Below, in pieces: positions 383 through 17,946 of a stretch of 54,276 nucleotides of DNA. Source of the stretch: a virus (lineage: Duplodnaviria; Caudoviricetes). Each line of letters starts with the position of its first letter. Positions within the stretch are counted from its first letter, which is position 1. The translations under genes were made by a program, and so were the position numbers. The notes under the pieces were generated by a model that searched no databases, was not told the origin of the DNA, and worked only from the letters and a program-made list of their open reading frames with translations. The stretch spans positions 1-54,276 of IMG/VR virus record IMGVR_UViG_3300034102_000129; one strand, 5' to 3'.

Positions 383-921
383 TACCTGCCGCTATCCAAG
401 CCATCCTTACACCCCTCCTTGGTAACGGGTTGAACCTCGTTGCCAACGCCGTCATGGCAAAGGGCAAGGACTATGTCGAAAAGAAGTTGGGCGTTGAACT
501 GAAGCCGGATATGTCCAGCGAGGACTTGGCGAAGGTTCAGATCGCACAGATGGAGCATGAGGAAGAACTGCTGCGGCTCCGTATCGAAGAGGACAAACTT
601 GACCTTGCGGAGTTGGAACTCCGTTTAAAGGACACAGATTCAGCGCGGGAGCGGGAGGTACAGATCTCCACATCTGACAAAGCCCCCTTGCTCAACAAGA
701 TCGTGACCCCCGTTCTCGCGCTGTCTATTCTGCTGCTGACCTTCGTGCTGTTTGGTGTGGTCATGTTCGACGATACCCCGGTTGAGGCAAGCCGCAAGGA
801 CATCCTCATCTACATCTTGGGTGTGCTGTCTGCCATCGCCAGCCAAATCGTTAGTTACTACTTTGGTTCCAGCCAGAGCAGCAAGGACAAGACCGACGCA
901 CTCAAGGAGGCTATCAAGTGA
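379..921 (+). CDS. putative holin
   Basis: Two C-terminal TM segments, DTDSARERE and terminal YYFGSS motifs typical of phage holin-like proteins. Lies directly upstream of the endolysin. Confidence 0.65.
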   Translation: MIPAAIQAILTPLLGNGLNLVANAVMAKGKDYVEKKLGVELKPDMSSEDLAKVQIAQMEHEEELLRLRIEEDKLDLAELELRLKDTDSAREREVQISTSDKAPLLNKIVTPVLALSILLLTFVLFGVVMFDDTPVEASRKDILIYILGVLSAIASQIVSYYFGSSQSSKDKTDALKEAIK

Positions 922-1256
922 GTCTCGTAGCAGAACAGGCGGCGTTCCTGCTGGATGTCGCCAAACTCATCAACAAGGCGACGGAGTTGGGCTTTGTGGT
1001 GACGGGCGGTGAACTTGCCCGTACCCCGGAACAGCAAGCCATCTATGTCAAGACGGGTCGCTCCAAGACGATGAACAGCATTCATCTTAAGCGGTGCGCC
1101 ATCGACCTTAACTTCTTCAAGGACGGCAAACTGACCTACGACATCCCTGCTCTTACGCCGGTCGGTGAGTATTGGCAGAGCCTCAACCCCAAGAATCAAT
1201 GGGGCGGGTTCTGGAAGTCGTTCAAGGATGTTCCTCATTTTGAACGCAAGGTATAA
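918..1256 (+). CDS. endolysin, peptidase M15 family (Zn D-Ala-D-Ala / L-Ala-D-Glu peptidase-like)
   Basis: SxHxxxxAxD motif (SIHLKRCAID) and C-terminal WGGFW...DVPHFE. Confidence 0.85.
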   Translation: MSLVAEQAAFLLDVAKLINKATELGFVVTGGELARTPEQQAIYVKTGRSKTMNSIHLKRCAIDLNFFKDGKLTYDIPALTPVGEYWQSLNPKNQWGGFWKSFKDVPHFERKV

Positions 1257-1258
1257 CG

Positions 1259-3550
1259 ATGCCTTTGCAAAAACTGGAACTTAGACCCGGCGTAAATCGT
1301 GAGGCCACTTCGTATGCCAACGAGGGTGGCTTTTTTGCTGGTGATAAGATCCGGTTCCGTTCTGGCTACGCTGAAAAGATAGGTGGCTGGCAGAACATCA
1401 ATGTCAATGGTAGTACGTTCAAGGGCGTCTGCCGTATGTTGTGGAATTGGATCAGCACGCTTGGTCAGAACCTCGTCGGTCTGGGAACAAGTCAAAAGGT
1501 CTACATTGAGCAAGGCGGCACCTACCATGACATTACCCCGCTTGGTAACTCGCTAACCCTTTCGCAGAATCCGTTCTCAACAACGTCGGGCAGTCGGCTT
1601 GTCACGGTTACAGCCTCGGCGCACTTGTCTTCTATTGGCACCTACGTCAACTTCTCTGGAGCCACTGCGGTGGCTAGCCTAACGTTGGACGGTCAGTATG
1701 AGATTCAAGCCGTTCCAAATGCCAATACGTTCACCATCTATGCTTCTGCTACGGCAAGTTCCACGACGACTGGCGGCGGCTCGCTGGTCATTGCCAAGTT
1801 TGATATTGATGCAGGCAACGCTGTCTATAGTTCGGGCGTTGGCTGGGGTGGCCCTCCTTGGGGATCGGGCGGGTGGGGTTCCTCCACAGGTGCCGGTGTG
1901 GAGATGCGTCTCTGGTCGATGTTCAACTACGGCGATGATTTGATCTTCGCTGAACGTAGTGGCGAGATTTATTTCTGGACGATAGACACCTCTATGTGGC
2001 CCCGTGCAGTTACGCTTGAAGAAAAAGCCAACACGGTCAATAAAGGTTTGACTTTTGGCGCGTTTGCTTCGGGTGTTACCACTATCGTTCTGGACGACAC
2101 GACTGGGTTGGATACGGGCGCGGTACTGTCAGGTAGTGGCATCGTTACCGGTACATACGTCACAGAAGCATGGGACTTCGGCAACTCGGTCACGATCTCG
2201 CAGGCAACGAACGCCTCGGCTACGCTTTCGGCTATCTCGTTCAGTTACGCTGGTCGGCACGTGCCGAATGAAGTCAACACGATCATTAGTTCACCGGTCA
2301 GTGACTTCGTTATATCTTGCGGTTCTACCCCATACGATCCGACTAGTTTTGTTACAACGTTTGACCCACTTCTCGTGCGCTGGTCTGACCAAGGTGTGCC
2401 GTACGAATGGGTTCCTGCAGTGACTAACCAGTCAGGTGAACAGCGTTTGTCGAGTGGTTCGTACATTGTCACAGCCAATAATACCCGTCAGGAAGTTTTG
2501 GTCTGGACGGACACAGCCCTCTTCTCCATGCAGTACGTCGGGCCTCCGTTCGTGTGGTCGTTCACGCTGCTGGATCAAGACACTACTATCGCATCGCAGA
2601 ACTCGGTGCTTACCGTGAACAACGTGGTCTACTGGATGGGCCGCGATAAGTTCTTCATGTATTCGGGGCGCGTTGAGACGCTGCCTTGCACCCTTCGTCA
2701 GTTTGTCTATAACGACATCAACTATGACCAGTTAAGTCAGGTTGCGGCAGGGGCCAACGAGGGCTACAACGAGATCTGGTGGTTCTATCCTTCTGCTAAC
2801 AGCACCATTAATGACCGATATGTCGTTTATAACTACCTTGAACGAATTTGGTACTACGGCAATTTGAACCGCACGTTCTGGGTACAGCACACGCAACGTA
2901 CGTACCCGTTTGCGTCATTCAACGTGCAGCAGGCATACCTTGCCACGAGCATCAACTCGTCGGTCACCACGATTGCCTTGACCGACACTTCGACCTTCCC
3001 GATGACTGGGACAATTACGGTGGACTCGGAGAAGATTTTCTACGCTGCCAAAGACGGCAACACCCTGACTAATTGTGTTCGTGGGTATGACGGCACGACG
3101 GCGGCATCGCATGGTCTTTATGCTTACGTAACTTACACCGTCGCTAACCAAATCATGCTGCACGAGGTGGGTAACGATGATCAGTCGGTCAGCCCTGCCC
3201 TGCCAATTGAGGCATACGTAGAGTCGTCTGACTTTGACATCCAAGACGGGCAGAGTTTTGGTTACGTCTGGCGCATCATCCCTGACCTTAATTTCACGGG
3301 GTCTACGGGTACGAGTCCGACTGTGACCCTCACGGTACGCCCTCGCCAGAACTCAGGTTCTAACTACACGAGCGCAGACAGCCCGACTGTAACGCGCACT
3401 TCAACGGTGCCGATCCAACAGTACACGGGTCAGGTCTACACGCGAGTGCGGGGTCGTCAAATGGCCTTCAAAGTGTCTTCGGCTGATTTAGGCGTGGCGT
3501 GGCAGATGGGTGTTATGCGTATCGACGTTCGACCGGATGGACGCCGATGA
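1259..3550 (+). CDS. virion tail/stabilisation protein (tail tubular B / nozzle-like)
   Basis: 763 aa, beta-rich and T/S/G-rich, with LVRWSDQ, EIWWFYPS and terminal RIDVRPDGRR motifs characteristic of podophage tail proteins. Positioned before the internal virion genes. Confidence 0.7.
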   Translation: MPLQKLELRPGVNREATSYANEGGFFAGDKIRFRSGYAEKIGGWQNINVNGSTFKGVCRMLWNWISTLGQNLVGLGTSQKVYIEQGGTYHDITPLGNSLTLSQNPFSTTSGSRLVTVTASAHLSSIGTYVNFSGATAVASLTLDGQYEIQAVPNANTFTIYASATASSTTTGGGSLVIAKFDIDAGNAVYSSGVGWGGPPWGSGGWGSSTGAGVEMRLWSMFNYGDDLIFAERSGEIYFWTIDTSMWPRAVTLEEKANTVNKGLTFGAFASGVTTIVLDDTTGLDTGAVLSGSGIVTGTYVTEAWDFGNSVTISQATNASATLSAISFSYAGRHVPNEVNTIISSPVSDFVISCGSTPYDPTSFVTTFDPLLVRWSDQGVPYEWVPAVTNQSGEQRLSSGSYIVTANNTRQEVLVWTDTALFSMQYVGPPFVWSFTLLDQDTTIASQNSVLTVNNVVYWMGRDKFFMYSGRVETLPCTLRQFVYNDINYDQLSQVAAGANEGYNEIWWFYPSANSTINDRYVVYNYLERIWYYGNLNRTFWVQHTQRTYPFASFNVQQAYLATSINSSVTTIALTDTSTFPMTGTITVDSEKIFYAAKDGNTLTNCVRGYDGTTAASHGLYAYVTYTVANQIMLHEVGNDDQSVSPALPIEAYVESSDFDIQDGQSFGYVWRIIPDLNFTGSTGTSPTVTLTVRPRQNSGSNYTSADSPTVTRTSTVPIQQYTGQVYTRVRGRQMAFKVSSADLGVAWQMGVMRIDVRPDGRR

Positions 3551-4143
3551 CCGTCGCACGTGGCATATCTACGCCGAATTTGCCGGTTGCTCCGATTCAA
3601 TACGAGCAGCGGTTTCAAGATCAATTTAGTAACGTCTTGCGGCTTTTCTTTAGGCAGGTAGCCAATCGGGTTAATTCACCGACCGCACACGCTTCGTATT
3701 TTGATACGACGACGCAGCCAAATCCGGTTGCGGATGCCGTTAATTTGTTTACTTACAATTCAGTAGTTACCCAGCAGGCTGTTACACGCGGTACCCCAAC
3801 ATCCAAAATCTACGTTGCTCAGACTGGGATTTATAACTTTCAGTTTTCTGCCCAGTTAGATAAAACGGGCGGTTCGGCAAGTGCCGTATATATCTGGCCT
3901 CGTATTAACGGGGTAAACCTGCCGGACTCGGCTACTAAAGTTGTTATTGACGGACCAAATAGCGAAATTGTTCCGGCTTGGAATTTTGTATTAGTAATGC
4001 AAGCAAACGACTATTTTGAGTTGGCTTGGCAATCTTCGGACACCGACGTAGTTATTCCGTATGTAGCCGCAACCGGCAACATCCCAGCGATCCCCTCCAT
4101 CATCTTGACGGTGGTTTGGGTATCAAATTACGAGGCTAACTAA
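3547..4143 (+). CDS. virion structural protein with C1q/BclA-like beta domain
   Basis: ATG at 3547 overlaps the upstream TGA. The GIYNFQFSAQ motif resembles a C1q-type jelly roll. Confidence 0.55.
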   Translation: MTVARGISTPNLPVAPIQYEQRFQDQFSNVLRLFFRQVANRVNSPTAHASYFDTTTQPNPVADAVNLFTYNSVVTQQAVTRGTPTSKIYVAQTGIYNFQFSAQLDKTGGSASAVYIWPRINGVNLPDSATKVVIDGPNSEIVPAWNFVLVMQANDYFELAWQSSDTDVVIPYVAATGNIPAIPSIILTVVWVSNYEAN

Positions 4144-4180
4144 TGATACTATCCATCAAACTTGACCCCGTGAGGGAGTT

Positions 4181-6946
4181 ATGAATCAGAGTCAGTCCAT
4201 GGCGGGTCTCGCCTCCCTCGTGCAGTCACGGGGCCGGAACGGCGATTCCATGCTTGTCCACATGACCCCCGGCGAAGTGAAGGGTTTACATGCGCTGGCA
4301 CTGGCCCACGGCGGTAGCCTGACCATCAACCCAGATACAGGGCTGGTAGAGGCAAACTTCCTTAAAAAACTACTGCCGACTGTCCTTGGGTTTGGGCTTA
4401 ACTTTCTTTTCCCCGGCCTTGGTGCGTTGGGTAGTGCGGCCCTTGTAGGTGCGGGTGAAACCATCCGAACAAAGGGTGACCTTGGCAAGGGTTTGATGGC
4501 TGGCCTTGGCGCGTTTGGTGGTGCCAGTCTTGGTGCGGGACTTAGTGCGGCTGCGGGTACTGCGGGCGCTACGGGCGCTGGTGCTAGTAGCACTGGGGCT
4601 TTGACTGCCGAACAAATTGCTCAGAAAGCCATCACAGATGCTGGTCAGTTCGGGTACGCAAACGCAGTTCCTGCTGCTCAAACGGCTATGACAACTGCGG
4701 CTCCTGCTTCTGCGACGGCACCCGGCTTCTTCAATCAGATGGGTCAAGGTATCTCGGCTCTTGCTAATCCTGCTGGTCGTACCGCGTTCATGAATGCTGT
4801 GCCCGGTGGCATGATGGGTATTGCGGCTGGTGGTGTGGGCATCGCTGATGCACTATCTCCCGACTACAAGATGCCGACCGGCGGGAACATGGAGATTGAC
4901 CAGTCCTACTACGAAGGTGGCGACTACGACCCTGTGACCGGGACATTCCGGCAGGGGCAGTGGCGTAAGGGCTATCCCGGCTTCCCTCCGCCGGGCATGG
5001 CAGGAGGCGGCGTAATTCCAGCCCCAAATGGTAATTATCCGTTGGCTAGGCCATCTAATTCCGTAGGTGGATATGGGCCAGACATCGACCCATATACGGG
5101 CGAAGAGCGGTTTGCCGCTGGTGGAGCGGCAGTGGGCCGACGAAGTTACGAAGAGATGCCGATAGACCCAGAGTTGGCTCGACCCAACTCAGCCAAGGCT
5201 GGTTGGATGCAGTACATGCAGCAGAACCCGGCAGAGCAACAGCGGTTTATTGATTCGGGTTATCCGGCAGAGTTTTTCCAACAGAACCCAGAGACCTTTA
5301 CTGGGAATCGCCCGTTTATTGCCGGTAAAGACGAGGCAACTAGAGCCTCTGAACAAGCACGGTTAGCGCAGCAGGGTATTACCTCTCCGTCTGCGATGCC
5401 GCAGTACCAGTCTGCTCCTCAAAGCGCAGACTCTTTTGCTTCTTATTTGCAGAACCTTAACCAGTACGTCACTTCGCCTGTCGCTGCTCCCACACCTCCC
5501 GCGCAGCAGCCTCCTCCTGCTAGGGTAACCCCTCCGGGCGCTGGTGGTAGACCGGTTGCTGGTGGTAGTTACTCTGGCGATGGCAGGATGCGTTGGGATT
5601 CGACTCAAGGCCGCTTCGTTGCTGATGCTCCGCAAGGTCGTTTCGGCGGCACTGACCCGTTCTCGGATATTGGCAACATAGATTTGTCCAACTTTGGCAA
5701 CATAGATTTTTCTAGGTTGCAAGAACTTATGGGCGGAATGAGTGGGGCCAGAGGCGGTAATACCCCCGGCCCAAGGGATAGGAACATGTACGACCAGTTT
5801 ACTGGTGACATGGGCGACGATATGGGTGACATGGGTAGTAGAGGTGTTCCCCCAACAACTTCGATGGGAGGCGGGATGTATGGCCCAACTACCGGTAATC
5901 AGCAGATAGAAATGGGTGACATGGGCGATGTTGCCTACGCTGGCGGTACACCCGGCTTTGATATGACTGGCGGTATGGGCGGTATGGGTGACATGGGCGA
6001 GGGAAGTTACGCTCCTGATATGTCTATGTACGGGCAGCAGCCTTCTGCTGATCTCCAAGCGCTAATGAATCTTCAATCTCAAGGGTTTGGACGTACTGAT
6101 TCTCCTGAGATGCAAGGGCCATTTCGGTCGATTGAGTCACCTGTGCCACAGTATCAACGTGAACTTGCACCTGACCTCAATCCGTACTCGCCTCGTATCA
6201 TCGAGGAAGAGCCTTCGGCTATGGCTCACGTCTATCAGCCGCCTGCCATGACTCCGTTCAGCGAACCTGAGCGTAATTACATGCCCGAGCCTTCGGCTAT
6301 GGCTCACGTCTATCAGCCGCCTGCCATGACTCCGTTCAGCGAACCTGAGCGTAATTACATGCCCGAGCCTTATATGTCAGAAATGCAAGGAGGGTTCGGA
6401 AGTATGGGTGATATGCAGCAACCGGCTCCGCAACCCGTATCTGATATGGGCGGCTTCGGTATGTTTGGCGGTGGCGATGGTGGGCTGGGCTTTAGTGGTA
6501 TGGGGCAACCGGCTCCGCAGCAGCCTGCTCCCTCGTTTGATATGAGCGGCTTTGGTGGGTTTGGCGGAATGCCACAGCAGCCTGCTCCCTCGTTTGATAT
6601 GAACGGTATGAGCGGGGGCATGGATTTCGGTGGCGGTATGGACTATAGCGACGGAGGCTTTGCTGGCGGTGGCGCGATCCAATACGCTGCGGGTGGTAAG
6701 TTCCTGCGCGGCCCCGGCGATGGCATGTCGGATGACATCAAGGCCAACATCAACGGTGAGCAAGAAGCCCGGCTGGCTGATGGCGAGTTCGTCATCCCTG
6801 CCGATGTGGTTTCTCATATCGGTAACGGCTCAAGCGAAGCCGGTGCTGATCGGCTCTACAAGATGATGGCCGATGTGCGTCGGGCAAGAACGGGTAAGCG
6901 TAAACAAGCCCCGGCAATTAAGGCTGGGAAGTACATTCCAAAATGA
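4181..6946 (+). CDS. internal virion/ejection protein, low-complexity, with C-terminal GPG..SD..LxDGEFV domain
   Basis: 921 aa. N-terminal GRNGDSMLVHMTPGEV...INPDTGL domain, hydrophobic G/A segment, M/G/P/Q-rich disordered middle, C-terminal GPGDGMSDDI...RLADGEFVIPADVV. RBS GAGGGAG. Confidence 0.7.
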   Translation: MNQSQSMAGLASLVQSRGRNGDSMLVHMTPGEVKGLHALALAHGGSLTINPDTGLVEANFLKKLLPTVLGFGLNFLFPGLGALGSAALVGAGETIRTKGDLGKGLMAGLGAFGGASLGAGLSAAAGTAGATGAGASSTGALTAEQIAQKAITDAGQFGYANAVPAAQTAMTTAAPASATAPGFFNQMGQGISALANPAGRTAFMNAVPGGMMGIAAGGVGIADALSPDYKMPTGGNMEIDQSYYEGGDYDPVTGTFRQGQWRKGYPGFPPPGMAGGGVIPAPNGNYPLARPSNSVGGYGPDIDPYTGEERFAAGGAAVGRRSYEEMPIDPELARPNSAKAGWMQYMQQNPAEQQRFIDSGYPAEFFQQNPETFTGNRPFIAGKDEATRASEQARLAQQGITSPSAMPQYQSAPQSADSFASYLQNLNQYVTSPVAAPTPPAQQPPPARVTPPGAGGRPVAGGSYSGDGRMRWDSTQGRFVADAPQGRFGGTDPFSDIGNIDLSNFGNIDFSRLQELMGGMSGARGGNTPGPRDRNMYDQFTGDMGDDMGDMGSRGVPPTTSMGGGMYGPTTGNQQIEMGDMGDVAYAGGTPGFDMTGGMGGMGDMGEGSYAPDMSMYGQQPSADLQALMNLQSQGFGRTDSPEMQGPFRSIESPVPQYQRELAPDLNPYSPRIIEEEPSAMAHVYQPPAMTPFSEPERNYMPEPSAMAHVYQPPAMTPFSEPERNYMPEPYMSEMQGGFGSMGDMQQPAPQPVSDMGGFGMFGGGDGGLGFSGMGQPAPQQPAPSFDMSGFGGFGGMPQQPAPSFDMNGMSGGMDFGGGMDYSDGGFAGGGAIQYAAGGKFLRGPGDGMSDDIKANINGEQEARLADGEFVIPADVVSHIGNGSSEAGADRLYKMMADVRRARTGKRKQAPAIKAGKYIPK
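6209..6371 (+). repeat. exact 78-bp tandem duplication (2 copies plus 7 bp), in frame
   Basis: GAGCCTTCGGCTATGGCTCAC...TACATGCCC at 6209 and 6287, encoding EPSAMAHVYQPPAMTPFSEPERNYMP twice. Confidence 0.95.
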
Positions 6947-7398
6947 TTGTACGCCAAATTAAAAACGAAGATAGCGACTTGAAGAAGGTAATTGAACTTC
7001 TTGCAGGGCATTTTGTGCCGGAGCACAAGATGGGGCCATTGAGCGCGATTAACGTAAATCTTGAGAAAGGTATTAAGTGGGTTATTTATAATGTTAATGA
7101 GGCGGCGTTTGGCGTAGAAGAAGACGGTAAACTTGTAGGTTCACTCGGCCTTCACCGTACGTCGCCTTGGTATTCTGATTCCGAGTATTTAGCAGACGGC
7201 TGGTTTTATGTTCTGCCTGAATACCGCAAAACCGGAGTGGGCAAAATGCTAATTGATGCGGCCAAACACCACGCCGAAGAGGCAAAAGTCCCACTCATTA
7301 TAGGGGTCTTCACCAGCGAAGATGCGGATACTAAAGCGCAGGTCATGCAGAAACTTGGCCTGACCATGGTCGGCGGTTTGTTCGCCGCAGGAGTTTAA
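6943..7398 (+). CDS. GNAT-family acyl/acetyltransferase
   Basis: Acyl-CoA binding motif A YVLPEYRKTGVGKMLI in a 151-aa protein. Confidence 0.85.
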   Translation: MIVRQIKNEDSDLKKVIELLAGHFVPEHKMGPLSAINVNLEKGIKWVIYNVNEAAFGVEEDGKLVGSLGLHRTSPWYSDSEYLADGWFYVLPEYRKTGVGKMLIDAAKHHAEEAKVPLIIGVFTSEDADTKAQVMQKLGLTMVGGLFAAGV

Positions 7399-7400
7399 TT

Positions 7401-9344
7401 ATGTGTGGCGGTGGCGGCGGTTCATCACAACCAACTAGTCAAACAGTAACTCAGGTCACGATACCGCCTGAGTTGATGCCGTATGCCAAGAAAGCACTTG
7501 GCACTGCGGAAAGTCTTGTTTACGGCAAACCGTACGAAACCTTCCAAGGTCAGCGTTTTGCGGGGCTTAACCCCCTCCAGATGCAGGCCATGCAGCAGAT
7601 TCAGCAGCAGCAACTTGCACCTCAGATAGGTCAAGCGACTGGTATGGCAGGACTTGCTGGCCTGCAGGCGCAACAACTGGGCCAATACGCCCCCTCGCAG
7701 TATCAAGGGCTGGACGTTAGTTATCTTGGCGCTCAGGCTCCTAACTTGCAGCAGTATCAAATGGGGCCAGCGGAGCGCGTTGGTGCTGATACCGTTTCTG
7801 CACAGAACTTGCAGCAGTACCAGATGGAGGGGCCGGAAAGCGTTGCGGCTCAAACTGATTTTGGTTCTGTCTCTGCGCCCGGTCTTCGTGACATTCAGAT
7901 GGGTGGGCCACAACAGGTTCAAGCACCGTCTGACCTTGAGCGATTGCAGATGGGGCCAGCCGAACGTGTCGGCACCCAAGCCCTTGAACAGTACCAGATG
8001 GGGCCAGCCGAGCAGGTTCAAGCCGAGAAGTTTGGGCTGTCCTCGCTTCAGCCATACATGTCTCCGTACATGCAGGATGTCGTGGAGACCCAGAAGCGCG
8101 AGGCGATGCGCGATGTGGCCCGTCAGATTCCCGGTATGGGCGCTGCCGCTGCTCGTGCGGGTGGGCGTGGCGGTAGCCGTGAAGCATTGCTTCAGTCAGA
8201 GTCTCGCCGCAACCTTGCTAATCAGTTGCAGGGCATTCAGGCCACGGGTACGCAGCAGGCGTTCCAGCAGGCTCAGCAGCAGTATGGCGTTGACCGTGCT
8301 CAAGCGTTGCAGGCGGCGCTGGCTAACCAACAAGCGGGTCTTACCACGGGCCAGCAGAATCTGGCTGCACGACTTGGCGTCCAGCAGTTAGGCGCACAAC
8401 AGGGACTGCAGGCGGCTCTCGCCAATCAGGCGGCGGGTATGCAGGTCGGCCAGCAGAATCTGTCTGCGGCACAGGCTCGCCAGCAGTTGATGGCTCAACA
8501 GGGGCTGGAGGCTCAGCGGCTCAATCAGGCGGCTGGGCTTACTGCCGGTCAGGCCAATCTTCAGGCTGCGCTTCAGACGCAGGGGCTTGGCGCACAGCAG
8601 GGTATGCAGGCTGCGTTGGCTAACCAGCAGGCGCGTATTACTGGGGGCCAGATGGGCCTCCAAGCGTCGTTGGCTAATCAGCAGGCTCGACAGAGAGCGG
8701 CTGAGCAGAACCTTCAGGCTAGACTCGGCGTTCAGCAGTTGGGCGCACAGCAAGGGTTGCAGGCCGGACTCGCTAATCAACAGGCTAGAATGCAGGCTGC
8801 ACTTGCCAACCAGCAGGCGGGTCTGACCACTGGTCAGCAGAACCTCGCGGCTAGACTCGGTGTTCAGCAGTTGGGAGCGCAGCAGGGTCTACAGGCTCAG
8901 TTGGCTAACCAGCAGTCTCAACTTCAGGCTCAGCAGCAAGCGTTGCAGCAGCGTCAATTTGGTACTCAGTTTGGCGAACAGTCGCGGCAGTTCGGTGCCA
9001 ATCTTGGACTGCAGGGTATCCAGCAACAGTTGGCTGCGGCGGGTATGCTTGGCAACCTTGGACAACAGCAGTTTGGTCAGCAGTCTGCAATCAATCAAGC
9101 GCAAGCGGCGGCGGGGCAGCAGTTGCAGGCGCAGGAGCAGCAGAGACTTCAGGCTTCGTACGAAGACTTCCTTGCCCGTCAGCGTTACCCGTACACGCAA
9201 CTTGGTTTCATGTCTGACCTCATCCGTGGTACGCCCACGGCTGGTGGTATCCAGACCATGTATCAAACGCCGCCTAGTATGCTGAGTCAAGTTGCTGGCG
9301 CGGGTCTTGGGTTAGCCGGTCTCTACGGCGCGGGTAGGGGTTAA
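7401..9344 (+). CDS. Gln/Ala/Gly-rich internal virion (DNA ejection/pilot-like) protein
   Basis: Starts MCGGGGGS. Has QMGP repeats, then 11/33-residue helical repeats and a hydrophobic GAGLGLAGLYG tail. RBS AGGAG. Confidence 0.7.
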   Translation: MCGGGGGSSQPTSQTVTQVTIPPELMPYAKKALGTAESLVYGKPYETFQGQRFAGLNPLQMQAMQQIQQQQLAPQIGQATGMAGLAGLQAQQLGQYAPSQYQGLDVSYLGAQAPNLQQYQMGPAERVGADTVSAQNLQQYQMEGPESVAAQTDFGSVSAPGLRDIQMGGPQQVQAPSDLERLQMGPAERVGTQALEQYQMGPAEQVQAEKFGLSSLQPYMSPYMQDVVETQKREAMRDVARQIPGMGAAAARAGGRGGSREALLQSESRRNLANQLQGIQATGTQQAFQQAQQQYGVDRAQALQAALANQQAGLTTGQQNLAARLGVQQLGAQQGLQAALANQAAGMQVGQQNLSAAQARQQLMAQQGLEAQRLNQAAGLTAGQANLQAALQTQGLGAQQGMQAALANQQARITGGQMGLQASLANQQARQRAAEQNLQARLGVQQLGAQQGLQAGLANQQARMQAALANQQAGLTTGQQNLAARLGVQQLGAQQGLQAQLANQQSQLQAQQQALQQRQFGTQFGEQSRQFGANLGLQGIQQQLAAAGMLGNLGQQQFGQQSAINQAQAAAGQQLQAQEQQRLQASYEDFLARQRYPYTQLGFMSDLIRGTPTAGGIQTMYQTPPSMLSQVAGAGLGLAGLYGAGRG

Positions 9345-9355
9345 GGAGAACAAAC

Positions 9356-11335
9356 ATGATTGACAAAAACTACAACCCGCTTAACCCGATGGTTGATCAG
9401 GTCAAGAAGTTTCTTGACCAGAAGAAAGTCCCGCAGGAACAGGTCGTGCCGTTCCTGATGTCGCTGGGCTACCGTGGTTTAGCCGGTGCCGTGGCAGGGC
9501 GTATGCGGCTTGAGAAGGCTAGCGAGGGCATAAAGACTCTTCAACAAGCGCAGGGTCAAGCCCCAGCCCCGCCGAATGTTATCCAAGAAAATGCTATGCA
9601 GGCTCAGCAGATGCAGCAGGGCATTCAGCAAGCGTTGGCTTCGCGGCGACCCCCGATGCCGCCTCAACAGGCTCAACCTCCCGGCATGGCGGGTGGGGGT
9701 ATCGTTGCATTTAGTAATGGCGGTGGCCCGACTTCTTCCCAAACTTTTGACGAACTTGAAGACATGTTCCGCACCGGTACTCCTGCAGAACAGGCGCGAA
9801 TACTTCAGTGGGCAGAAAAAAATATGCCTACGTTTGCTCAATATTTGAGAAGCCCCGCTGTTGGTACAATTGCTAGCGGAGCAAAAAAAGTTGCTAAGGG
9901 TGCTCCAGCAATCGGCGGTTTAGCCGGTTTGTATGGCATGTCTCAGACCGACCCTAGAAATTTACAGAGCGAGTCTCGGCTTGCTCAACTTGGTATGGAC
10001 GTTGATCCAAATAGCGCAATAAAAACTTATGCAGCGGGATTAGCAGGTATAGCAGAATCGGCAATACCTTTTGCTGGGCTGTTCTACGACACCCCGCTTG
10101 ATAAAGCACAAGCCGCGTCTGATAAGCGTAGGCAGTTTATTTTGAATGCGCCGGGAGCGCAGACTAACCTCAATCCCCAAGAAACCGGGATTGCTCAAAA
10201 CTACATGGCGATTGTTCGTCAATACGGTGCCAATTCAAAAGAAGCGAAAGACTTTGAAACCAGATACCGTGATGCAATGGGTCGCGCTGCACCGGAAGCC
10301 GAAGACGCTTTGGCACAATATATGACTCAGTCTGCGGCTGGTGGACGAGGAGCGGGTGGTGGACAAGGAGCGGGTGGTGGACAAGGAGCGGGTGGTGGAC
10401 AAGGTGCAGGTGGTGGGCCTCGTTTGCCTAGCGTTTCTACTACAGCACAAGAGACCAAAACATTATCTGATTTGCGTGAACGGCTAAAAGGCATGGAAGA
10501 TGTATCCAAGCCCGAAGCGCGTGAAACAGCGATTGACAGAGAGATTGCTGCCCGTATGAAGCGTTACACCGATATGGGCATCATGAAGCCGTTTGACGAT
10601 GCCAAGGCTAACGTGCAAGGGCGTTTGAAAGAACTTGACGGCATCAAGGATAAGAACTTCTACAAGGCTATGGCTATGATGGGTTTCACCATGGCAGGAA
10701 CCCGTGGGTCGTTCTTCCAAGCCCTTGCAGCCGGTGGCGCAGCGGGACTGTCAGCCTACGAGACATTTGAAGAACGGCGTCAGGCTACGCTTGATAAGTT
10801 GCAAGACCGCATGATGAATATTGACATGGGTATTGCGAACATAAAGGAGAGGGCTGGCGCTGGCGCAGAAACGCGGGTAGACAAACTTGAGTCTGAACGC
10901 AACCGAGTTCAGGATCAAATTACTAATTTGCAATCGGCCCAAGAGACACTTGCTCAAACGCAGTCGTTTCAGTTGGCAATGTCAGACCGCGAAATTGCTG
11001 CAAGAGCGGGTCTACAGGAACGCCAGATTGCCGCCGATGCTGCACGAGACGATTCTCGATATGGCGGCTTGGGCAAGGAAATTGAACAAGAAATTAGTCG
11101 GTTTCGTCAGATTGCTCAAGATCCGAAAGCCCCAGCAAACGTGCGTGAAGCAGCGCGTAAACGTGTGGAAGAACTGTATAAAGAACGTGAACGTGCTACA
11201 CAGGTTGGTAGCGGCGGCTATCAGTCGGCCCTTGCGAGACTCGCGGGTAATCAAATCCTCGGATACAATTACCCTCAAATCGGGGCTGAAGGCCAAGGTT
11301 CTACCGAAGGCTGGGGCGATGTAACTGTTAGGTAA
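9356..11335 (+). CDS. internal virion/ejection protein
   Basis: 659-aa helical/coiled-coil protein between the Q-rich and giant virion genes. Contains MAGGGIVAFSNGG. RBS AAGGAG. Confidence 0.6.
   Translation: MIDKNYNPLNPMVDQVKKFLDQKKVPQEQVVPFLMSLGYRGLAGAVAGRMRLEKASEGIKTLQQAQGQAPAPPNVIQENAMQAQQMQQGIQQALASRRPPMPPQQAQPPGMAGGGIVAFSNGGGPTSSQTFDELEDMFRTGTPAEQARILQWAEKNMPTFAQYLRSPAVGTIASGAKKVAKGAPAIGGLAGLYGMSQTDPRNLQSESRLAQLGMDVDPNSAIKTYAAGLAGIAESAIPFAGLFYDTPLDKAQAASDKRRQFILNAPGAQTNLNPQETGIAQNYMAIVRQYGANSKEAKDFETRYRDAMGRAAPEAEDALAQYMTQSAAGGRGAGGGQGAGGGQGAGGGQGAGGGPRLPSVSTTAQETKTLSDLRERLKGMEDVSKPEARETAIDREIAARMKRYTDMGIMKPFDDAKANVQGRLKELDGIKDKNFYKAMAMMGFTMAGTRGSFFQALAAGGAAGLSAYETFEERRQATLDKLQDRMMNIDMGIANIKERAGAGAETRVDKLESERNRVQDQITNLQSAQETLAQTQSFQLAMSDREIAARAGLQERQIAADAARDDSRYGGLGKEIEQEISRFRQIAQDPKAPANVREAARKRVEELYKERERATQVGSGGYQSALARLAGNQILGYNYPQIGAEGQGSTEGWGDVTVR
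10349..10417 (+). repeat. 18-bp tandem repeat (GGAGCGGGTGGTGGACAA x3 plus degenerate copy) encoding a GAGGGQ linker
   Basis: Exact copies at 10349, 10367 and 10385. Confidence 0.9.
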
Positions 11336-11340
11336 AGCAA

Positions 11341-14300
11341 ATGCCTATTTACGAAATTCGTGGGCCTGACGGTAAAACGTACAGCATCGAAGGGCCGCCG
11401 GGTGCTACTCGTGAGCAGGTTATTGCTGCTATCCAGTCACGTATGGCAACCAAGCAGGCCCGGTCAGAACAAGCCGGGTTCCTTGAGTCTTTCCGTGAGT
11501 CGGCACTTGGGCTAGGTAAGGCTCCAGAGGCTGCACGTTTTGCAGCGGCTGAACCCGGCACGGATGAGGCTAGAAAAGCCTTCCTTGAGGCGAATCGTCC
11601 CAAGAAAGAAACGACTAGTTTTGAGGAAGTCAAAGACCTCTCCTCGCTTGTTGACTGGGCTAAGCAAACCGCCGGTACTTCGACGGGTTATCTCGTTGCT
11701 CCTGCCGCTGCCGCTACGGTCGGCAAAATGCTTACCAAAGCCCCCGGTGCTGCCAAGGCTCTAGGTTACGGCACGCTCGGAGCGCAGTACCTCATCGATA
11801 ATCTAAGTCGTCAAGCCGCGACACAGGAAGAACAAATACAACGTGGCGAAGGCCCATCTGAGACCTCGTTGGCTAAAGCAGGTGCTGCAGCAGTTGGACA
11901 AACCGCGTTGGACGCGGTGGGTATCAGATTCTTCAAACCGTTGTTTGGGCAATTCCCGATCCTTCGCAATCTGCTAGGTGAGTCTGGTGAGAAGGCTGCG
12001 AAGGAGGCTGAAGACGCGCTGCTTGAGTCCGTACGTAATGGTACGTTGACTCGCGGTAGGGGAATCGTATCTGGCGCTGTCAAAGGTGCGGCGTTTGAAA
12101 TTCCGCAAGAAATTGCTCAAACCGTTCTTGAACGTGCTCAAGCCGGTTTGTCTCTGACAGATCGTGAAGCGCGGCGCGAATACACGGAGGCTGCAGCAGG
12201 TGCGGTGCTGTTGGGTTCGCCGTTGGGCGGTGCTTCGCAGTACTACCAGAACAAGGAAAAGATTGAAGAAGCGCAGCAGATTCAGTTTGCACGCGAGATT
12301 GAGCGAGAAGAGGCGCGGCAGAAAACAGAAGCGGCTAGAAAAAAAGCCGCCGAAGCCGAGCGTGAGACAGAAAAGGGTGTCAAGAAAGAGACCCGTGAAG
12401 CCAAGATTAGCGAACAACTCGACGCTGCCCGTAACGTTCTTTTTAACCTGACCAACCCTGACGGTACTCCGATTACGGTGGAGGCCGAACCGGGACAGTT
12501 TGAACGTGCATTGATTGGCTCAGGCATTCCGGCAAGGGACGCTAACAGGTTGCTTGGACGGCTCAAAAGAGAGTCTGTCATCACCGAGCGTAACCCTGTC
12601 ACGGGCATTCGTAGCATCATTCCTGAAGCCAAGCAATATGATTTGACGAAAGGGACAGAAGAAGTTACCACTGCTGCGGCTCCACCTGCTTCTGCACTGG
12701 CTGCGGCTCAAGTTACAACTGCGGCTGCCCCGGCCCCGGTTGCCGCTGAACCGGATAGAGGTACGACTGATGAATCAACAAGAATTGTGGCTCCAGCAGC
12801 AGGTATTGCAGAAACTGACACTGGAGCAATTCGAGCAGGCGTTGCACAGCCTGTACAAGAACGAAGAGCCACACGACCCCCTGCTACAGAGGTTGCAGAT
12901 ACCGGAGTGGTTAGCGTTGATGAAACTGCTGGGCAACCTGTTAATCGAGAAGAACCAGTCAAGCCTGCACTAAGTGATCTAAAACTTGAGACTTGGCAGC
13001 AGCGATTTGAACAGACGAAATCCCGATTTGATGAGGCTGATCCCGAGTCGCCCATCAATCTGCTTACTCGCATCAATCAACTTAAGCAAAAACTACCGGA
13101 TGGCGAGGGCGTAAAGTACTTAAACGACATCGAAAACATCGTTTCGTACCTCCGTAAAGGTGCGGATGTTGAGACTATTGCAGACAAGTTGGGCATGGAT
13201 CTGCCCGAAATTGAGTCCTATCTGGACGATTTGCGGAATCCTGAAGCCGAAGGGCTTCCTCCCATCATCGACGCAAATAACAAGCCGATACCTGAAGCGT
13301 TTGTAGAACAGAAAACTACTACCAAAGAAGGTCAAAAGGGTCGCACTATTGAGTCGGTATACAACCGTTTTTTGACGGCTAACGAAACGCCGTTGATAAC
13401 AGCAGCACGTTCACTTGATAGTCTGATCGACAAGTACGATGCGGATGACGTAATCAAAAACACTGGTGAATTGCGTGCGCGTCTCAACGAACGACTCAGC
13501 GAAATTGAAAAAGACCTAGCCGACCAAAAGGCTCTTCGCGCTGCACAGCGTGCTGCTAAAACAGAACGTGTCGGTGGGGAGACTGAAACCGAACTTGAGC
13601 AAAGAGAGGTTGCTGCCAGTCAACGCGCTCAAGCAAAAATTGAATCAGCAAACCAAACGGCAGGCATGGGGCCGGTTGTTAGCACGGAGTTGGCTAAAGC
13701 AAATGTAAACCTGCCCGACGTAGATCAGCAGGTCAAAGACGCCGTTGCTCAGAAAGACGCAAACAAGATTCTTGACGTTCTGTATGGGCTAAACGAAGAA
13801 CTTGGCAACGCAATTCCCGTAGGTGAAGCCCCTACTCCGCAGGTCGAGCGCGTCAAGCAAACGCCAAAGGAAATGACAAAGGGTCAACGAGCCAAGTTGA
13901 TCCGCAGCATTTTTGAAAAATCTATACCCACTGCTGAAAGCACCTCAAATCTGTTCGGTGAGCGTCCTGCTGTCGCCGTATCTGAGCGTGGCGCTGCCAA
14001 GCGTAGGATTGACGTAACCAAGTCTCTAATTGATACGCTAAGAAAAGTTGATCTTAGCGACCTTGGATTTGAACTTGAAGGCGATACCGAAGCCGATGCG
14101 GACGCTTTTGAGCGTATGCGTAAGCAGAACCGCCTTGCTGAATACGACCCCAAAACCAACGTCATCCGTCTGCGTGCTGAAGGTGTAAAGCAGAAAACAC
14201 TGCTGCACGAAATAGTTCACGCCGTCACTGTAAAAGTGCTGCGGCAGTATGAGACCGACCCGAATTCGTTGCCAGACAGTCAGCGCGAAGCAGCCGAACA

Positions 14301-17300
14301 TATCAACAAGATATATGGTTTGGCTAGCAAGAAACTCAAGACGCGGTACCCAAATGCGTTTGAGAGCGTGTACGAGTTTGTTTCGTATGCAATGACTGAG
14401 AACGCTTTCCAAAAAGATCTGTCCGAGTTGCGATCACCCAATCTGGCGAAGTACGCGACAAAGGCTGTCAAGGATTTCTGGACGCAGTTTGTAGAAGCGT
14501 TGATGCACATGTTTGACCTGTATCCGCTTGGGGGCCGCGAAGCCCTGTTTCAAGCAGAGAAAGCCATCAAACTTGAGCGTGATATCAACGATCCAAACAC
14601 ATCTGAAGCAAAAAAGAATTTGCTACGGCAACAGTTGGCCCGTATCCGTAAAGAGCGTATTCAGACCAGAGCGGGGAACTACCTGCTTGAGACTGCAGGA
14701 GCGTTTGAAGAGATACTGTCACCGCCACAAAAGGGCGTAGACGTTGCTCCGCTTGCTGCCAAGGCCGCACCTCCTGCAGAAGAACGTGATGTAAGTAAGA
14801 TCAAAGCCGAGTATCGCCGCAAACTTGAGAAAAAGCATCCTACGGAACCCGCCGTTCGTGGTGCCGTCAAGTTCCTCAAGACCCATGAAGGGTCAGAGTG
14901 GCTGATTCGCAAGTTCCAGAACGACCGTCGCCCACTCAAAGTGCTGCAGGACATCCTCGTTCGAGCAGGCAAGTTGATCGTAGGCGAGGAGAACTTTAAC
15001 AACCTGTATAGCCTCATCTCACTGTCGTCTGGCAATGCATTCCATGTCATGACACAGTATTTCCAGAAGGACATGCACGATGTCCACGAGGCTGTGGAAG
15101 CCTACGCCAAGGCTCGCAATTTAAATTTGATGGATGCCTTGAGCGACTTGAATCTTTACATGGTTGCCCGGCACGAACCAGAACGCAGGCTCATCAAATT
15201 CTTGCGTAACGTACCGCTTGATAACACCAAGTTGATTACGTTCGGTGGCGTAAGTAGAACTGCTGCCGAGCACCGTCGTGAGATTTTCAATCTGCTGCGT
15301 ACTAACGTTGCCTTGACCAAGGGCCAAGCCACGGCGTTGCGTAACTTCGTTGAAGGTCTTGCCGGATACAAGAACGGCAAAAAAGTTGGCATTGGGTCTA
15401 TTGATGTGAAGGCGGGCAAGTCCATGGATGCCCGTGCTAAACCCGGTAAATACACTGACGATATCAACGATGGCGTATACAACGTAGCCGGTGAGTTCAC
15501 ACCCAGCGAGTTGGAAAAGTTACGCAGTGCGTATCAGGTTGACCCACAGAAGGCGCTTGTTGATCGCATAACTGCGTCTATGAAGCGTATTCAAGACAAT
15601 ACTATTGAACGCGACAAGCAGGCTAACTACTGGTCGCAGCCTGTTGAAAACATCGTCAACTTCTACAACTTCCAGAACTACGTCCCGCTCAAGGGTAAGC
15701 CGGGGCAGGGTGAGACGGAAGATGAAAGCGAGTACAACTACACCGGCAGACGGCTGAGTGGTGAGTTGGCTGAGACTACGCAATCGTTTGAGGGTCGTAT
15801 CTCTGATGCCGATAACGTCATCATGCAGACGCTCGTTGACGGAGCCAAGTCTGCAATGCGTGCTGGCCGCAAAGATGTGACTCAAGCCATTAAGAACTTA
15901 ATTGAGCAAGGCTATATCGATGGCGTAAATTTGAATGGCGGCAGGAAGAACAAACCAATCCCGTTCCAAGACCGTGAAAGTCAACTTGAGTTGTCGAAAT
16001 ACAAAGGCGACGACAAGATCTATCACTACAACCCAGATGGGTCGGTTGAAGTTCTCAAAATCAACGATAAGCGTATGCTTGAGTCCATACGCCGTGTATA
16101 CCGCGAGAAGTCGCCGTTCATTGATATGGCTAACCGCATAACCAGCGGCATCGGTCAGTCTCACACCCGATACAACCCGGCCTTCCATCCGTACAACTTT
16201 GTCCGTGACGTACTGACCAACGCCTTCACGATGGGGGCTGAATTTGGGCCGGATAAGTCGCTGAAGTTTATTGGGCATATTTCGACCCGAGTTGCTGAAG
16301 GTGGCATGGCTAAAGCAGCCAAAGTCTCAAAACTCTATGCCGATGGCGATGTTGGCAAAATACAAGAACTTGCCAAGAAAGACTCCTTCACTGCCAGCAT
16401 ACTTGAGTACCTGCAAGAAGGCGGTCGCGTCTCCTACGTGCAGGGTCTAGCCATTCAAGGTCAGATTGACGAACTTGTCAAAGATATCAACCGTGGTAAG
16501 TGGGTTCGCGGTAAGGAAAAGATAGACAAGTGGGTCGATATCTGGACTGACATGTTTGAATTGACGAGCCGCGCTGCCGCTTACGAAACGGCAAAGGCCG
16601 AAGCCTTGGCACGGGGTATGTCAGAGAAAGCGGCACGGCAAGAAGGCGCTGCATACGCCAAGAACCTCGCCAACTTTGAACAAGTCGGTGAGTGGGGTCG
16701 CCAAGCCGGTGCGTTGTACATGTTCTTCCGGCCTGCTGCGACTGGTGCTGTTCGTGCGATTGATGCACTGATTCCAGCAATTCAAGATGTGCAGACAGCC
16801 GTTGATAGACTGCCAGAGTCAATTCGGAAAGATTCTGCGGCAGTTAATCGGTTCCGCGCCAATTTCATGAAAGAGAAAAAGAATGCTCAAGCGATGGCGC
16901 TTGGTCTTCTTGGAGCCGGGTTCACGTTGTACGTCATGGCGTTCATGGCTGCTGACGATGATGAGTTGGGTCGCAATGTAGTTTCTACGGAAGACATGTC
17001 GCTTTGGACACGTAATCTCCGTCTGCCGCTCGGCTTCTTGGGTATTGAACGCCTAAAGGACAGTTTCCTGCAGTGGCCGTGGGGCTTTGGTCTTGGCGCG
17101 TTTGGAGCCATGGGAGCGCAGGTTGCCGGTATGGCGATGGGTAGAGCGTCTCTGGCTGACGGCCTTGCCAATGCTACGACGATTGCTCTGGACTCCTTCA
17201 TCCCCCTGCCGGTTGCCCGGTTCAACCCGACTGACAATTTCCCAGCATGGATGCTTGACTCACTTGCTCCTAGCCTTGCGCGTCCGTTCCTTGAGTACAC

Positions 17301-17946
17301 CATGAACGTAGACACGTTTGGTCGTGAGATATACAACAACCGCATGAGTCGATATGGCGATGCGTTCACGGGCGGTAGGCACGTGCCAGAGTTATACAAC
17401 CAAGCAGCCCGTAAGTTGTTTGAAGTGAGCAACGCACAAGTCGATGTCTCGCCCAACACAATGTACTTCTTTGCCAACAACTACGTTGATGGCTTGAGCC
17501 GCATAATCCACAACGGGCATGGCATGTTCTTCACGCTGTTTGGGCAAAAAGAGTTTGACCCCAAACGAGACCTTATCTTCATGGATAGTTTCTTCGGCAG
17601 GAAGTCGAGCGTAGACGCCCGTGAGTTTGCTCAAATTGAGAAACGCATCCAAGAGAAAGAGCAGCGGCTGCGTACGGTCAAAGACAGACCTGAACTGATG
17701 CAGCGGTACTTGGAGTCAAACCCGAACGATCCTGCGCTTGTGTATATCTACAACAAGTTGAAGAATCAGCAGTTGAAGCGTGTCCGAGAAGAGATGAACA
17801 AGGTCAAGGCGGCGGACATCGGGCCAGACAAGGAAATCAAGTCTGTTAAGGATCGGCAAGAACGACTGCGTGACCTTGAGCGGATACGTGATATGACGAT
17901 GCGTAGCATTATCGATACGTTTGAACAGTACGGGCTAGAACCCTAA
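11341..17946 (+). CDS. giant internal virion / large polyvalent protein (zincin HExxH metallopeptidase plus LPD38-like C-terminus)
   Basis: 2201 aa. N-terminal GPDGKTYSIEGPPG, TLLHEIVHAVT at 14197-14229, and C-terminal LRLPLG..QWPWGFGLG..NVDTFGREIY resembling LPD38. Confidence 0.75.
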   Translation: MPIYEIRGPDGKTYSIEGPPGATREQVIAAIQSRMATKQARSEQAGFLESFRESALGLGKAPEAARFAAAEPGTDEARKAFLEANRPKKETTSFEEVKDLSSLVDWAKQTAGTSTGYLVAPAAAATVGKMLTKAPGAAKALGYGTLGAQYLIDNLSRQAATQEEQIQRGEGPSETSLAKAGAAAVGQTALDAVGIRFFKPLFGQFPILRNLLGESGEKAAKEAEDALLESVRNGTLTRGRGIVSGAVKGAAFEIPQEIAQTVLERAQAGLSLTDREARREYTEAAAGAVLLGSPLGGASQYYQNKEKIEEAQQIQFAREIEREEARQKTEAARKKAAEAERETEKGVKKETREAKISEQLDAARNVLFNLTNPDGTPITVEAEPGQFERALIGSGIPARDANRLLGRLKRESVITERNPVTGIRSIIPEAKQYDLTKGTEEVTTAAAPPASALAAAQVTTAAAPAPVAAEPDRGTTDESTRIVAPAAGIAETDTGAIRAGVAQPVQERRATRPPATEVADTGVVSVDETAGQPVNREEPVKPALSDLKLETWQQRFEQTKSRFDEADPESPINLLTRINQLKQKLPDGEGVKYLNDIENIVSYLRKGADVETIADKLGMDLPEIESYLDDLRNPEAEGLPPIIDANNKPIPEAFVEQKTTTKEGQKGRTIESVYNRFLTANETPLITAARSLDSLIDKYDADDVIKNTGELRARLNERLSEIEKDLADQKALRAAQRAAKTERVGGETETELEQREVAASQRAQAKIESANQTAGMGPVVSTELAKANVNLPDVDQQVKDAVAQKDANKILDVLYGLNEELGNAIPVGEAPTPQVERVKQTPKEMTKGQRAKLIRSIFEKSIPTAESTSNLFGERPAVAVSERGAAKRRIDVTKSLIDTLRKVDLSDLGFELEGDTEADADAFERMRKQNRLAEYDPKTNVIRLRAEGVKQKTLLHEIVHAVTVKVLRQYETDPNSLPDSQREAAEHINKIYGLASKKLKTRYPNAFESVYEFVSYAMTENAFQKDLSELRSPNLAKYATKAVKDFWTQFVEALMHMFDLYPLGGREALFQAEKAIKLERDINDPNTSEAKKNLLRQQLARIRKERIQTRAGNYLLETAGAFEEILSPPQKGVDVAPLAAKAAPPAEERDVSKIKAEYRRKLEKKHPTEPAVRGAVKFLKTHEGSEWLIRKFQNDRRPLKVLQDILVRAGKLIVGEENFNNLYSLISLSSGNAFHVMTQYFQKDMHDVHEAVEAYAKARNLNLMDALSDLNLYMVARHEPERRLIKFLRNVPLDNTKLITFGGVSRTAAEHRREIFNLLRTNVALTKGQATALRNFVEGLAGYKNGKKVGIGSIDVKAGKSMDARAKPGKYTDDINDGVYNVAGEFTPSELEKLRSAYQVDPQKALVDRITASMKRIQDNTIERDKQANYWSQPVENIVNFYNFQNYVPLKGKPGQGETEDESEYNYTGRRLSGELAETTQSFEGRISDADNVIMQTLVDGAKSAMRAGRKDVTQAIKNLIEQGYIDGVNLNGGRKNKPIPFQDRESQLELSKYKGDDKIYHYNPDGSVEVLKINDKRMLESIRRVYREKSPFIDMANRITSGIGQSHTRYNPAFHPYNFVRDVLTNAFTMGAEFGPDKSLKFIGHISTRVAEGGMAKAAKVSKLYADGDVGKIQELAKKDSFTASILEYLQEGGRVSYVQGLAIQGQIDELVKDINRGKWVRGKEKIDKWVDIWTDMFELTSRAAAYETAKAEALARGMSEKAARQEGAAYAKNLANFEQVGEWGRQAGALYMFFRPAATGAVRAIDALIPAIQDVQTAVDRLPESIRKDSAAVNRFRANFMKEKKNAQAMALGLLGAGFTLYVMAFMAADDDELGRNVVSTEDMSLWTRNLRLPLGFLGIERLKDSFLQWPWGFGLGAFGAMGAQVAGMAMGRASLADGLANATTIALDSFIPLPVARFNPTDNFPAWMLDSLAPSLARPFLEYTMNVDTFGREIYNNRMSRYGDAFTGGRHVPELYNQAARKLFEVSNAQVDVSPNTMYFFANNYVDGLSRIIHNGHGMFFTLFGQKEFDPKRDLIFMDSFFGRKSSVDAREFAQIEKRIQEKEQRLRTVKDRPELMQRYLESNPNDPALVYIYNKLKNQQLKRVREEMNKVKAADIGPDKEIKSVKDRQERLRDLERIRDMTMRSIIDTFEQYGLEP
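12770..12973 (+). CDS. putative overprinted 67-aa protein nested in the +1 frame of the giant virion gene
   Basis: GAGGT at 12758-12762 lies 7 nt before ATG 12770. The product is an amphipathic Leu-rich helical sequence ending EKNQSSLH. Confidence 0.55.
   Translation: MNQQELWLQQQVLQKLTLEQFEQALHSLYKNEEPHDPLLQRLQIPEWLALMKLLGNLLIEKNQSSLH

Follow-up and report, generated by a model that had tools for sequence, protein, structure and literature searches.

In phage lambda, the o-spanin gene Rz1 lies in the +1 frame within the i-spanin gene Rz and is served by a ribosome-binding site of its own; its product, a lipoprotein that is secreted and has a lipobox cysteine, acts together with that of Rz. 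Overprinted genes are also known from small phages, namely E in D and B in A of phiX174 and L of MS2, whose tiny genomes are under size pressure, and many of these genes encode lysis proteins with a transmembrane (TM) domain. Disorder is common in the products of novel overprinted frames. Programmed frameshifting is another use of an alternative frame, by which the tail assembly chaperones gpG/gpGT arise. This work describes a small open reading frame (ORF) that is nested in the +1 frame of a giant gene in the IMG/VR virus record IMGVR_UViG_3300034102_000129 (Duplodnaviria; Caudoviricetes), a phage record of ~54 kb that was analysed over its full length of 54,276 nucleotides (hereafter the window). 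The conservation, selection pattern and start signals of this ORF indicate that it is very probably a genuine, independently translated gene, embedded out of frame in a linker of the giant gene. The gene and frame that contain the nested ORF, i.e. the host gene and host frame of the overlap, are called the giant gene and giant frame throughout. Overprinted and overlapping genes have been the subject of a general review (PMC8227390), and phage-type polyvalent proteins with an LPD38 domain have been described by Iyer et al. 2017 (PMC5512222).

The arrangement belongs to a known class, the embedded out-of-frame phage genes, whereas the encoded protein family is new. Rz1 in Rz is arguably the closest parallel: in both cases a late gene of a double-stranded DNA (dsDNA) phage wholly contains, in its +1 frame, a smaller gene with its own ribosome-binding site. 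Unlike Rz1, the nested protein has neither a conserved cysteine nor a hydrophobic segment and is predicted to adopt an acidic helical fold, and unlike in the Rz1/Rz pair, the giant frame appears unconstrained across the overlap and joint action with the giant protein is a proposal. With the overprinted genes of phiX174 and MS2 the locus shares that two proteins are encoded by one stretch of DNA under asymmetric constraint, but here the gene lies in a dsDNA phage record of ~54 kb, and it is the embedded partner that seems ordered and constrained while the giant-frame segment is a disordered spacer. The gpG/gpGT chaperones resemble it as a small protein in a structural operon, encoded in an alternative reading frame and associated with a very long structural protein (a helper role being proposed only for the nested protein); they differ in that the nested gene has independent initiation and no frameshift, and no sequence or fold similarity was found between the two. 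A literature search yielded no description of the nested gene, and the main text of PMC5512222 contains the words ‘overlapping’, ‘frameshift’ and ‘linker’ 0 times and describes no embedded gene.

In the window, the SD-like (Shine-Dalgarno) motif AGAGGT is separated by 7 nt (ACGACTG) from the ATG at 12770, and the frame ends with a TAA at 12971-12973 (coordinates of all features are given in Table 1). A preliminary description of this DNA, made from its letters and ORF list, had reported the same ribosome-binding site, spacing and start, and its 67-aa product is identical letter for letter. It had also described the giant frame at this position as a low-complexity linker of A, P, T, E and V, in agreement with the composition of aa 440-545 (A 26, T 13, V 12, P 12 and E 10 of 106 residues). 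The ORF listing starts the nested frame at an upstream TTG (12740, 77 aa; window 12740-12973). The ATG at 12770 is nevertheless the supported start, because the TTG extension has no SD and is not conserved in relatives. Taken by itself, the nested ORF is unremarkable. The +1 frame of the giant gene comprises 81 stop-to-stop segments, seven of which have at least 67 codons, with 0.036 stops per codon; ~9% of its 58-codon windows are open, and three ATG ORFs of 66-68 aa occur in it, the nested ORF being one of them. The open segment that contains the nested ORF is the longest of this frame (108 codons). The case rests on the comparison with relatives.

When viral contigs were scanned with the giant protein, five loci were obtained, four of which cover the region; the +1 ORF is kept in all four, including one whose giant protein is only 47% identical. 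When a giant-protein alignment was used instead, the viral scan returned 13 loci, 12 of them with a significant match to the nested profile; the 13th (L019) has a giant ORF of 2185 aa and no nested-profile match. The same alignment retrieved 52 loci from metagenomes, 29 with a nested match (E 1e-7 to 1e-28). The 23 metagenome misses consist of 17 clearly 5'-truncated loci, in which the giant ORF has at most 1472 aa and the region is absent, four borderline cases (1717-1780 aa) and two complete loci truly without the nested ORF (L045 and L067). All these viral and metagenome loci were retrieved by the giant protein alone, without reference to the nested frame. Every match lies on the same (+) strand, at a +1 offset within a spanning giant ORF, and ends with the same conserved C-terminus directly followed by the stop. 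Scans with two sub-alignments of the nested peptide added 71 further loci, of which 70 are nested likewise, the exception being a fragmented copy of the giant gene. The union of all retrievals comprises 77 distinct nested peptides. In one locus (L147, 3585-10169) the giant gene is present as four ORFs (466, 220, 346 and 966+ aa), the N-terminal one ending 15 nt before an intact nested ATG (5001); these breaks lie near A-runs, so a sequencing error is possible, and the nearest relatives are only ~72% identical.

The pattern EW..L..LL..L..EK...LH, which had been predicted from the single sequence, corresponds to the conserved core of the family, (E/D)W..L..(L/M)L..L..E(K/R/Q)..S.L(H/Q)-stop. Rather than carrying stops or lacking the start signals, the homologues keep an open frame, an SD-preceded start and this motif. 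Among the distinct viral homologues the nested ORF is intact in 9/9. Two other +1 ATG ORFs of the giant gene served as controls (11564-11764 and 15935-16141; 66 and 68 aa): each is broken by internal stops in 6/9 homologues, and neither has a conserved start.

Known phages were also searched. A nucleotide search of cultured phages gave no close DNA relative, and the C-terminus of the giant protein reaches at most 27.5% identity there, to Vibrio podophages; neither the giant gene of the Vibrio phage (L079) nor its whole genome contains a nested homologue. By tblastn, the search put forward in the preliminary description, the nested peptide found no match in phage records, and in none of these searches was a cultured phage found to carry the nested gene. 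The scans with the peptide's sub-alignments placed it within the giant gene in 70/71 loci. A scan of genome contigs with the giant-protein alignment returned no relative and therefore gave no clue to the host of the phage. No stand-alone copy turned up in the record of L019, in the genome of the Vibrio phage or in a set of 5.8 billion protein clusters, and the latter contained no longer or fused homologue, which is weak evidence by the search's own description. Only two of these clusters match, both being this nested ORF, which bears out the earlier expectation that standard gene callers miss the gene.

To compare the frames, 54 gap-free codons of 10 distinct sequences (45 pairs) were aligned on the nested peptide. 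At the amino-acid level, the nested frame has a mean identity of 0.47, compared with 0.28 for the giant frame and 0.30 for the third frame, and nested identity exceeds giant-frame identity in 44/45 pairs. Positions 1/2/3 of the nested codons differ at 1154/810/1193 nucleotides, so the least variable position is position 2, i.e. the wobble position of the giant frame. Along the whole giant gene, aligned on the giant protein, +1 identity is higher than giant-frame identity only in scan windows starting at aa 478-523 (0.21-0.28 vs 0.16-0.18); the two exceptions, which start at aa 829 and 838, are at noise level (0.12 vs 0.11-0.12). Position 3 of the giant frame is likewise least variable only in windows starting at aa 478-523 and is the most variable position elsewhere (0.55-0.80). 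Suppressed synonymous variation in the giant frame, which had been suggested as a mark of the nested gene, is seen, position 3 being lowest only over that gene.

Substitutions were then classified in nine separate close pairs by their effect (N, nonsynonymous; S, synonymous) in the giant frame and subsequently in the nested frame, giving NS 102, NN 38, SN 23 and SS 1. The resulting dNN/dNS of 0.16 (bootstrap 0.09-0.23) for the nested frame points to strong purifying selection on the nested protein, while a dNN/dSN of 0.98 (bootstrap 0.60-1.64) indicates that the giant frame is under no amino-acid constraint across the overlap and behaves as a drifting, neutral spacer. The pair L069-L077 was dropped because of a misaligning 2-codon indel; its inclusion raises the ratios to 0.29 and 1.06. 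In the flank, i.e. the 60 giant-frame codons after the nested stop, the pattern is reversed (giant frame 0.15, +1 frame 0.77), a control that rests on 4/9 pairs as the other five were skipped for indels just after the nested stop. Neither the nested nor the giant frame has a stop in any of 35/35 sequences, compared with a mean of 4.5 stops in the third frame; for this reason the giant frame is considered to be kept open, and the overlap would be a case of dual coding with one-sided constraint. Selection acts on the small protein, whereas the giant frame over the same bases need only stay open as a drifting Ala/Pro/Thr/Val/Glu spacer. The giant-frame linker right after the nested stop (12974-13170 and homologous positions) is rich in indels, with 5/9 close pairs not alignable gap-free; the nested gene, unlike this linker directly 3' of its stop, has almost no indels.

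The start codons of the 35 distinct sequences are ATG (28), GTG (6) and TTG (1). An SD-like motif is located 3-12 nt upstream of the start in 34/35 sequences, and the remaining sequence begins at the contig start. An SD match of at least 5 nt is present in 26/35 sequences versus 5.0% of 2100 background +1-frame start codons from 10 giant genes. By this comparison the nested gene has its own putative initiation signals. No sigma-70-like promoter was found upstream of it, and translation from the long late mRNA is therefore inferred, on which ribosomes would start at the nested SD and ATG.

The folded appearance of the 67-aa product, remarked on in the preliminary description, is supported by AlphaFold2, which predicts a confident helical fold. 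The model of the window protein (10 sequences; pLDDT 89.5, pTM 0.72) has helices at 3-15, 18-30, 37-40 and 44-66. A 39%-identical member (35 sequences; pLDDT 82.3, pTM 0.63) has helices at 7-18 and 35-54, which represent the same core without the N-terminal extension of the window clade. Residues A24, W47 and L57 are invariant, and conservation reaches 90% or more at L16, L28, L42, L50 and E60; most of these residues are hydrophobic and probably lie in the core. The family, with a median pI of 4.8 and a net charge of -4, is acidic, lacks a TM-like segment (maximum Kyte-Doolittle hydrophobicity with a window of 19 residues, KD19, of 1.24) and has no conserved cysteine, 25/35 members including the window copy having none at all. 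The product would thus be a soluble acidic protein of 54-67 aa in whose core a helix is joined by a loop with Pro to a long helix at the C-terminus. An Rz1-like o-spanin was considered as well and is ruled out by the lack of a conserved cysteine, the KD19 maximum and the helical fold. No family was found for the nested protein in Pfam (best E 0.027), PHROGs (best 0.021) or NCBIfam, a sequence profile search of the PDB gave no match (best 0.6), and Foldseek detected no known fold relative (best E 3.7 in the PDB and 2.1 in BFVD). By these sequence and structure searches, the nested protein is a new protein family, matching none in Pfam, PHROGs, NCBIfam, PDB or BFVD.

Other explanations for the conserved +1 frame were weighed against this evidence. 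A programmed frameshift, by which a truncated giant N-terminus would acquire an alternative C-terminus with the SD-like motif as stimulator, would fit the open +1 frame ahead of the ATG, which spans 41 codons in the window and up to 168 codons in some relatives, and SD-like motifs can indeed stimulate frameshifting (prfB, dnaX). Yet 10/35 homologues have a stop in the nested frame 0-4 codons ahead of the start, the one in L060 falling directly between the SD and the ATG, and a frameshift fusion is impossible in these ten for that reason; as a general mechanism, programmed frameshifting is refuted by these stops. The start codon is moreover conserved (ATG 28/35) at the head of the conserved region, and conservation starts there and not further upstream, so that we judge this explanation very unlikely. 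Still less probable is that it is a nucleic-acid element, such as an RNA structure or a packaging or regulatory site, and not a protein that has been conserved: conserved nucleotides in a drifting linker could have other causes, but nothing specific points to such an element, and against it stand the three-base periodicity in the nested frame with position 2 most conserved, the excess of synonymous changes in that frame, the absence of a sigma-70-like promoter upstream, and a start, stop and open frame that are kept despite only 40-60% nucleotide identity. That the biased composition of the linker left the frame open by chance is the least credible of all. The ORF is not unusual within the window, given three similar ATG ORFs and the proportion of open 58-codon windows, but a chance frame is refuted by the comparative results and the decay of the two control ORFs in relatives; if lineages are independent, the probability that at least 12 of them (<60% nucleotide identity) are all open there would be ~0.09 to the 12th power. 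The preliminary description's claim that the nested gene is real and makes use of a disordered part of the giant protein is supported by conservation, selection and start signals alike.

What the gene product does is a separate matter. Our tentative preference is that it works with the giant protein, from the same mRNA, as a chaperone or holder in assembly or packaging, or as an inhibitor of one of the giant protein's activities in the producing cell; this role is favoured because every copy of the gene that was found lies within the giant gene, and because its location is the late structural module. Nearly as likely, though also short of an even chance, is that the nested ORF is a real gene unrelated to the giant protein, encoding a free-acting small acidic effector (anti-defence or host-takeover) that happens to reside in a tolerant linker. 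Many phage anti-defence proteins are small, acidic, helical and soluble, and the nested product has these same properties and no known family; furthermore, two lineages have probably lost the nested gene yet kept the whole giant protein, with no domain co-lost. A free effector is harder to reconcile with the peptide-retrieved loci, all but one of which are nested (the exception having a fragmented giant gene), with the lack of any stand-alone or longer homologue among the 5.8 billion clusters, and with a location in the late structural module and not among early genes. The idea that the giant protein has a membrane-active N-terminal domain in need of a chaperone is unsupported by hydropathy.

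Several observations weigh against an embedded gene that serves the giant protein. Building the alignment on the nested peptide favours the nested frame; because of this possible bias the frame comparison was repeated along the whole giant gene on the giant-protein alignment, and that scan controls for it. In the clade L066/L071, the nine differences show no excess of nested-synonymous changes. The SD scores are somewhat inflated, since the best candidate start and SD near the start of the profile were chosen each time, and the support for expression of the nested gene is all at the level of sequence. As to function, a role as membrane-protein chaperone is weakened because the N-terminal domain of the giant protein is not strongly hydrophobic, and a co-loss analysis found no giant-protein domain that is lost together with the nested gene. 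Finally, the complete giant genes of L045 and L067, and the more distant ones of L019 and L079, do not contain the nested ORF, and the gene must therefore be dispensable or replaceable in some lineages.

The complete giant genes without the nested gene are located at 848-7825 (L045), 950-7816 (L067) and 7737-14294 (L019). In a quick tree of giant-protein C-termini, L045 groups with L053/L057 and L067 with L056, all three neighbours carrying the nested gene; the join of L056 and L067 is flagged as one of long branches meeting. L045 and L067 are accordingly placed among nested-gene carriers by this tree, and we read both as putative losses. L045 has a linker of Thr/Glu/Pro/Ala/Val repeats in place of the nested region.

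With regard to the origin of the overlap, it is conceivable, though on balance rather doubtful, that the small gene came before the linker, which would then be the overprint, two adjacent virion genes having been fused through the -1 frame of the gene that resided between them. The Leu/Gln/Glu-rich codons of the small gene, read in the -1 frame, would yield an Ala/Pro/Thr/Gly/Val/Glu spacer, so that the fusion would be cost-free and the gene would survive it. All ten giant-frame translations have this Ala/Pro/Thr/Gly/Val/Glu-rich composition, which in our view simply results from reading the codons of the small gene one base earlier. An order in which the small gene came first fits because the embedded partner is constrained and folded and the giant-frame segment neutral. 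It is weakened in that the searches found neither a stand-alone copy nor a clean split of the giant gene, the split in L147 being possibly a sequencing error. If the small gene did come first, polyvalent proteins could be built without losing the genes in between, and synthesis of the small protein would be physically tied to the nascent giant protein.

The family would be an example of a deeply conserved protein missed by standard gene calling, with its two clusters among 5.8 billion standing against more than 100 uncultured phage contigs. The overlap offers a clean dual-coding case, in which one frame appears strongly selected and the other neutral but open, and a natural system for how disordered linkers host, or get created over, other genes. 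To our knowledge, the synthesis and packaging of giant polyvalent proteins, and the way in which they are kept harmless, are poorly understood; a small protein encoded along with them and dedicated to them could be a concrete entry point. Long low-complexity linkers of giant phage genes may be worth scanning for conservation in alternative frames.

The giant protein matches Pfam LPD38 with 41.1 bits (cut-off 27). Around its gene, PHROGs names include terminase, portal, DNA polymerase, helicases, ‘virion structural protein’ and ‘DNA ejection protein’. Like the polyvalent proteins treated in PMC5512222, it is very large, comprises multiple modules, carries LPD38 and is encoded in a virion module, and on these sequence features it qualifies as a phage-type polyvalent protein, presumably virion-associated. 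Its designation as a virion protein would follow from the neighbouring genes and the LPD38 match.

Table 1. Features of the nested gene and the surrounding giant gene in the window
Feature	Coordinates	Strand	Basis
Giant gene, 2201 aa (P0002), polyvalent-type, virion/ejection-protein module	11341..17946	+	ORF list; LPD38; neighbours
Low-complexity linker of the giant frame, aa 440-545, carrying the nested gene	12658..12975	+	Composition, identity, dNN/dSN, stop counts
AGAGGT, SD-like, with a 7-nt spacer to the nested ATG	12757..12762	+	Sequence; SD kept in homologues
Nested gene, 67 aa (P0001), +1 frame of the giant gene; predicted small acidic helical protein, new family	12770..12973	+	Conservation, selection, AlphaFold2
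HExxH motif (HEIVH), aa 956-960 of the giant protein, in a conserved block	14206..14220	+	Context only
TM-like segment, aa 1849-1872 of the giant protein	16885..16956	+	Kyte-Doolittle, window 19, score 1.83; context only
LPD38 domain of the giant protein, aa 1907-2059	17059..17517	+	Pfam, E 2.8e-10

In the whole-gene scan, identity of the giant protein rises at aa 910-1010, the block that contains HEIVH. The TM-like segment is the only strongly hydrophobic segment of the giant protein and lies just N-terminal of LPD38. Family searches of the giant protein gave no assignment for either the HEIVH block or the TM-like segment. The first 30-45 residues are swapped modules among otherwise homologous genes (window 11341-11450; L008 7896-; L009 8001-; L031 1112-; L053 1469-; and others). 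One N-terminal type, ‘MPIY..GPDG..Y.I.GP.GAT’, is common to the window, L009, L015, L026 and L060, another, ‘MATLEQI..AL..A..AGD’, to L008, L012, L013 and L052, and several further types exist.

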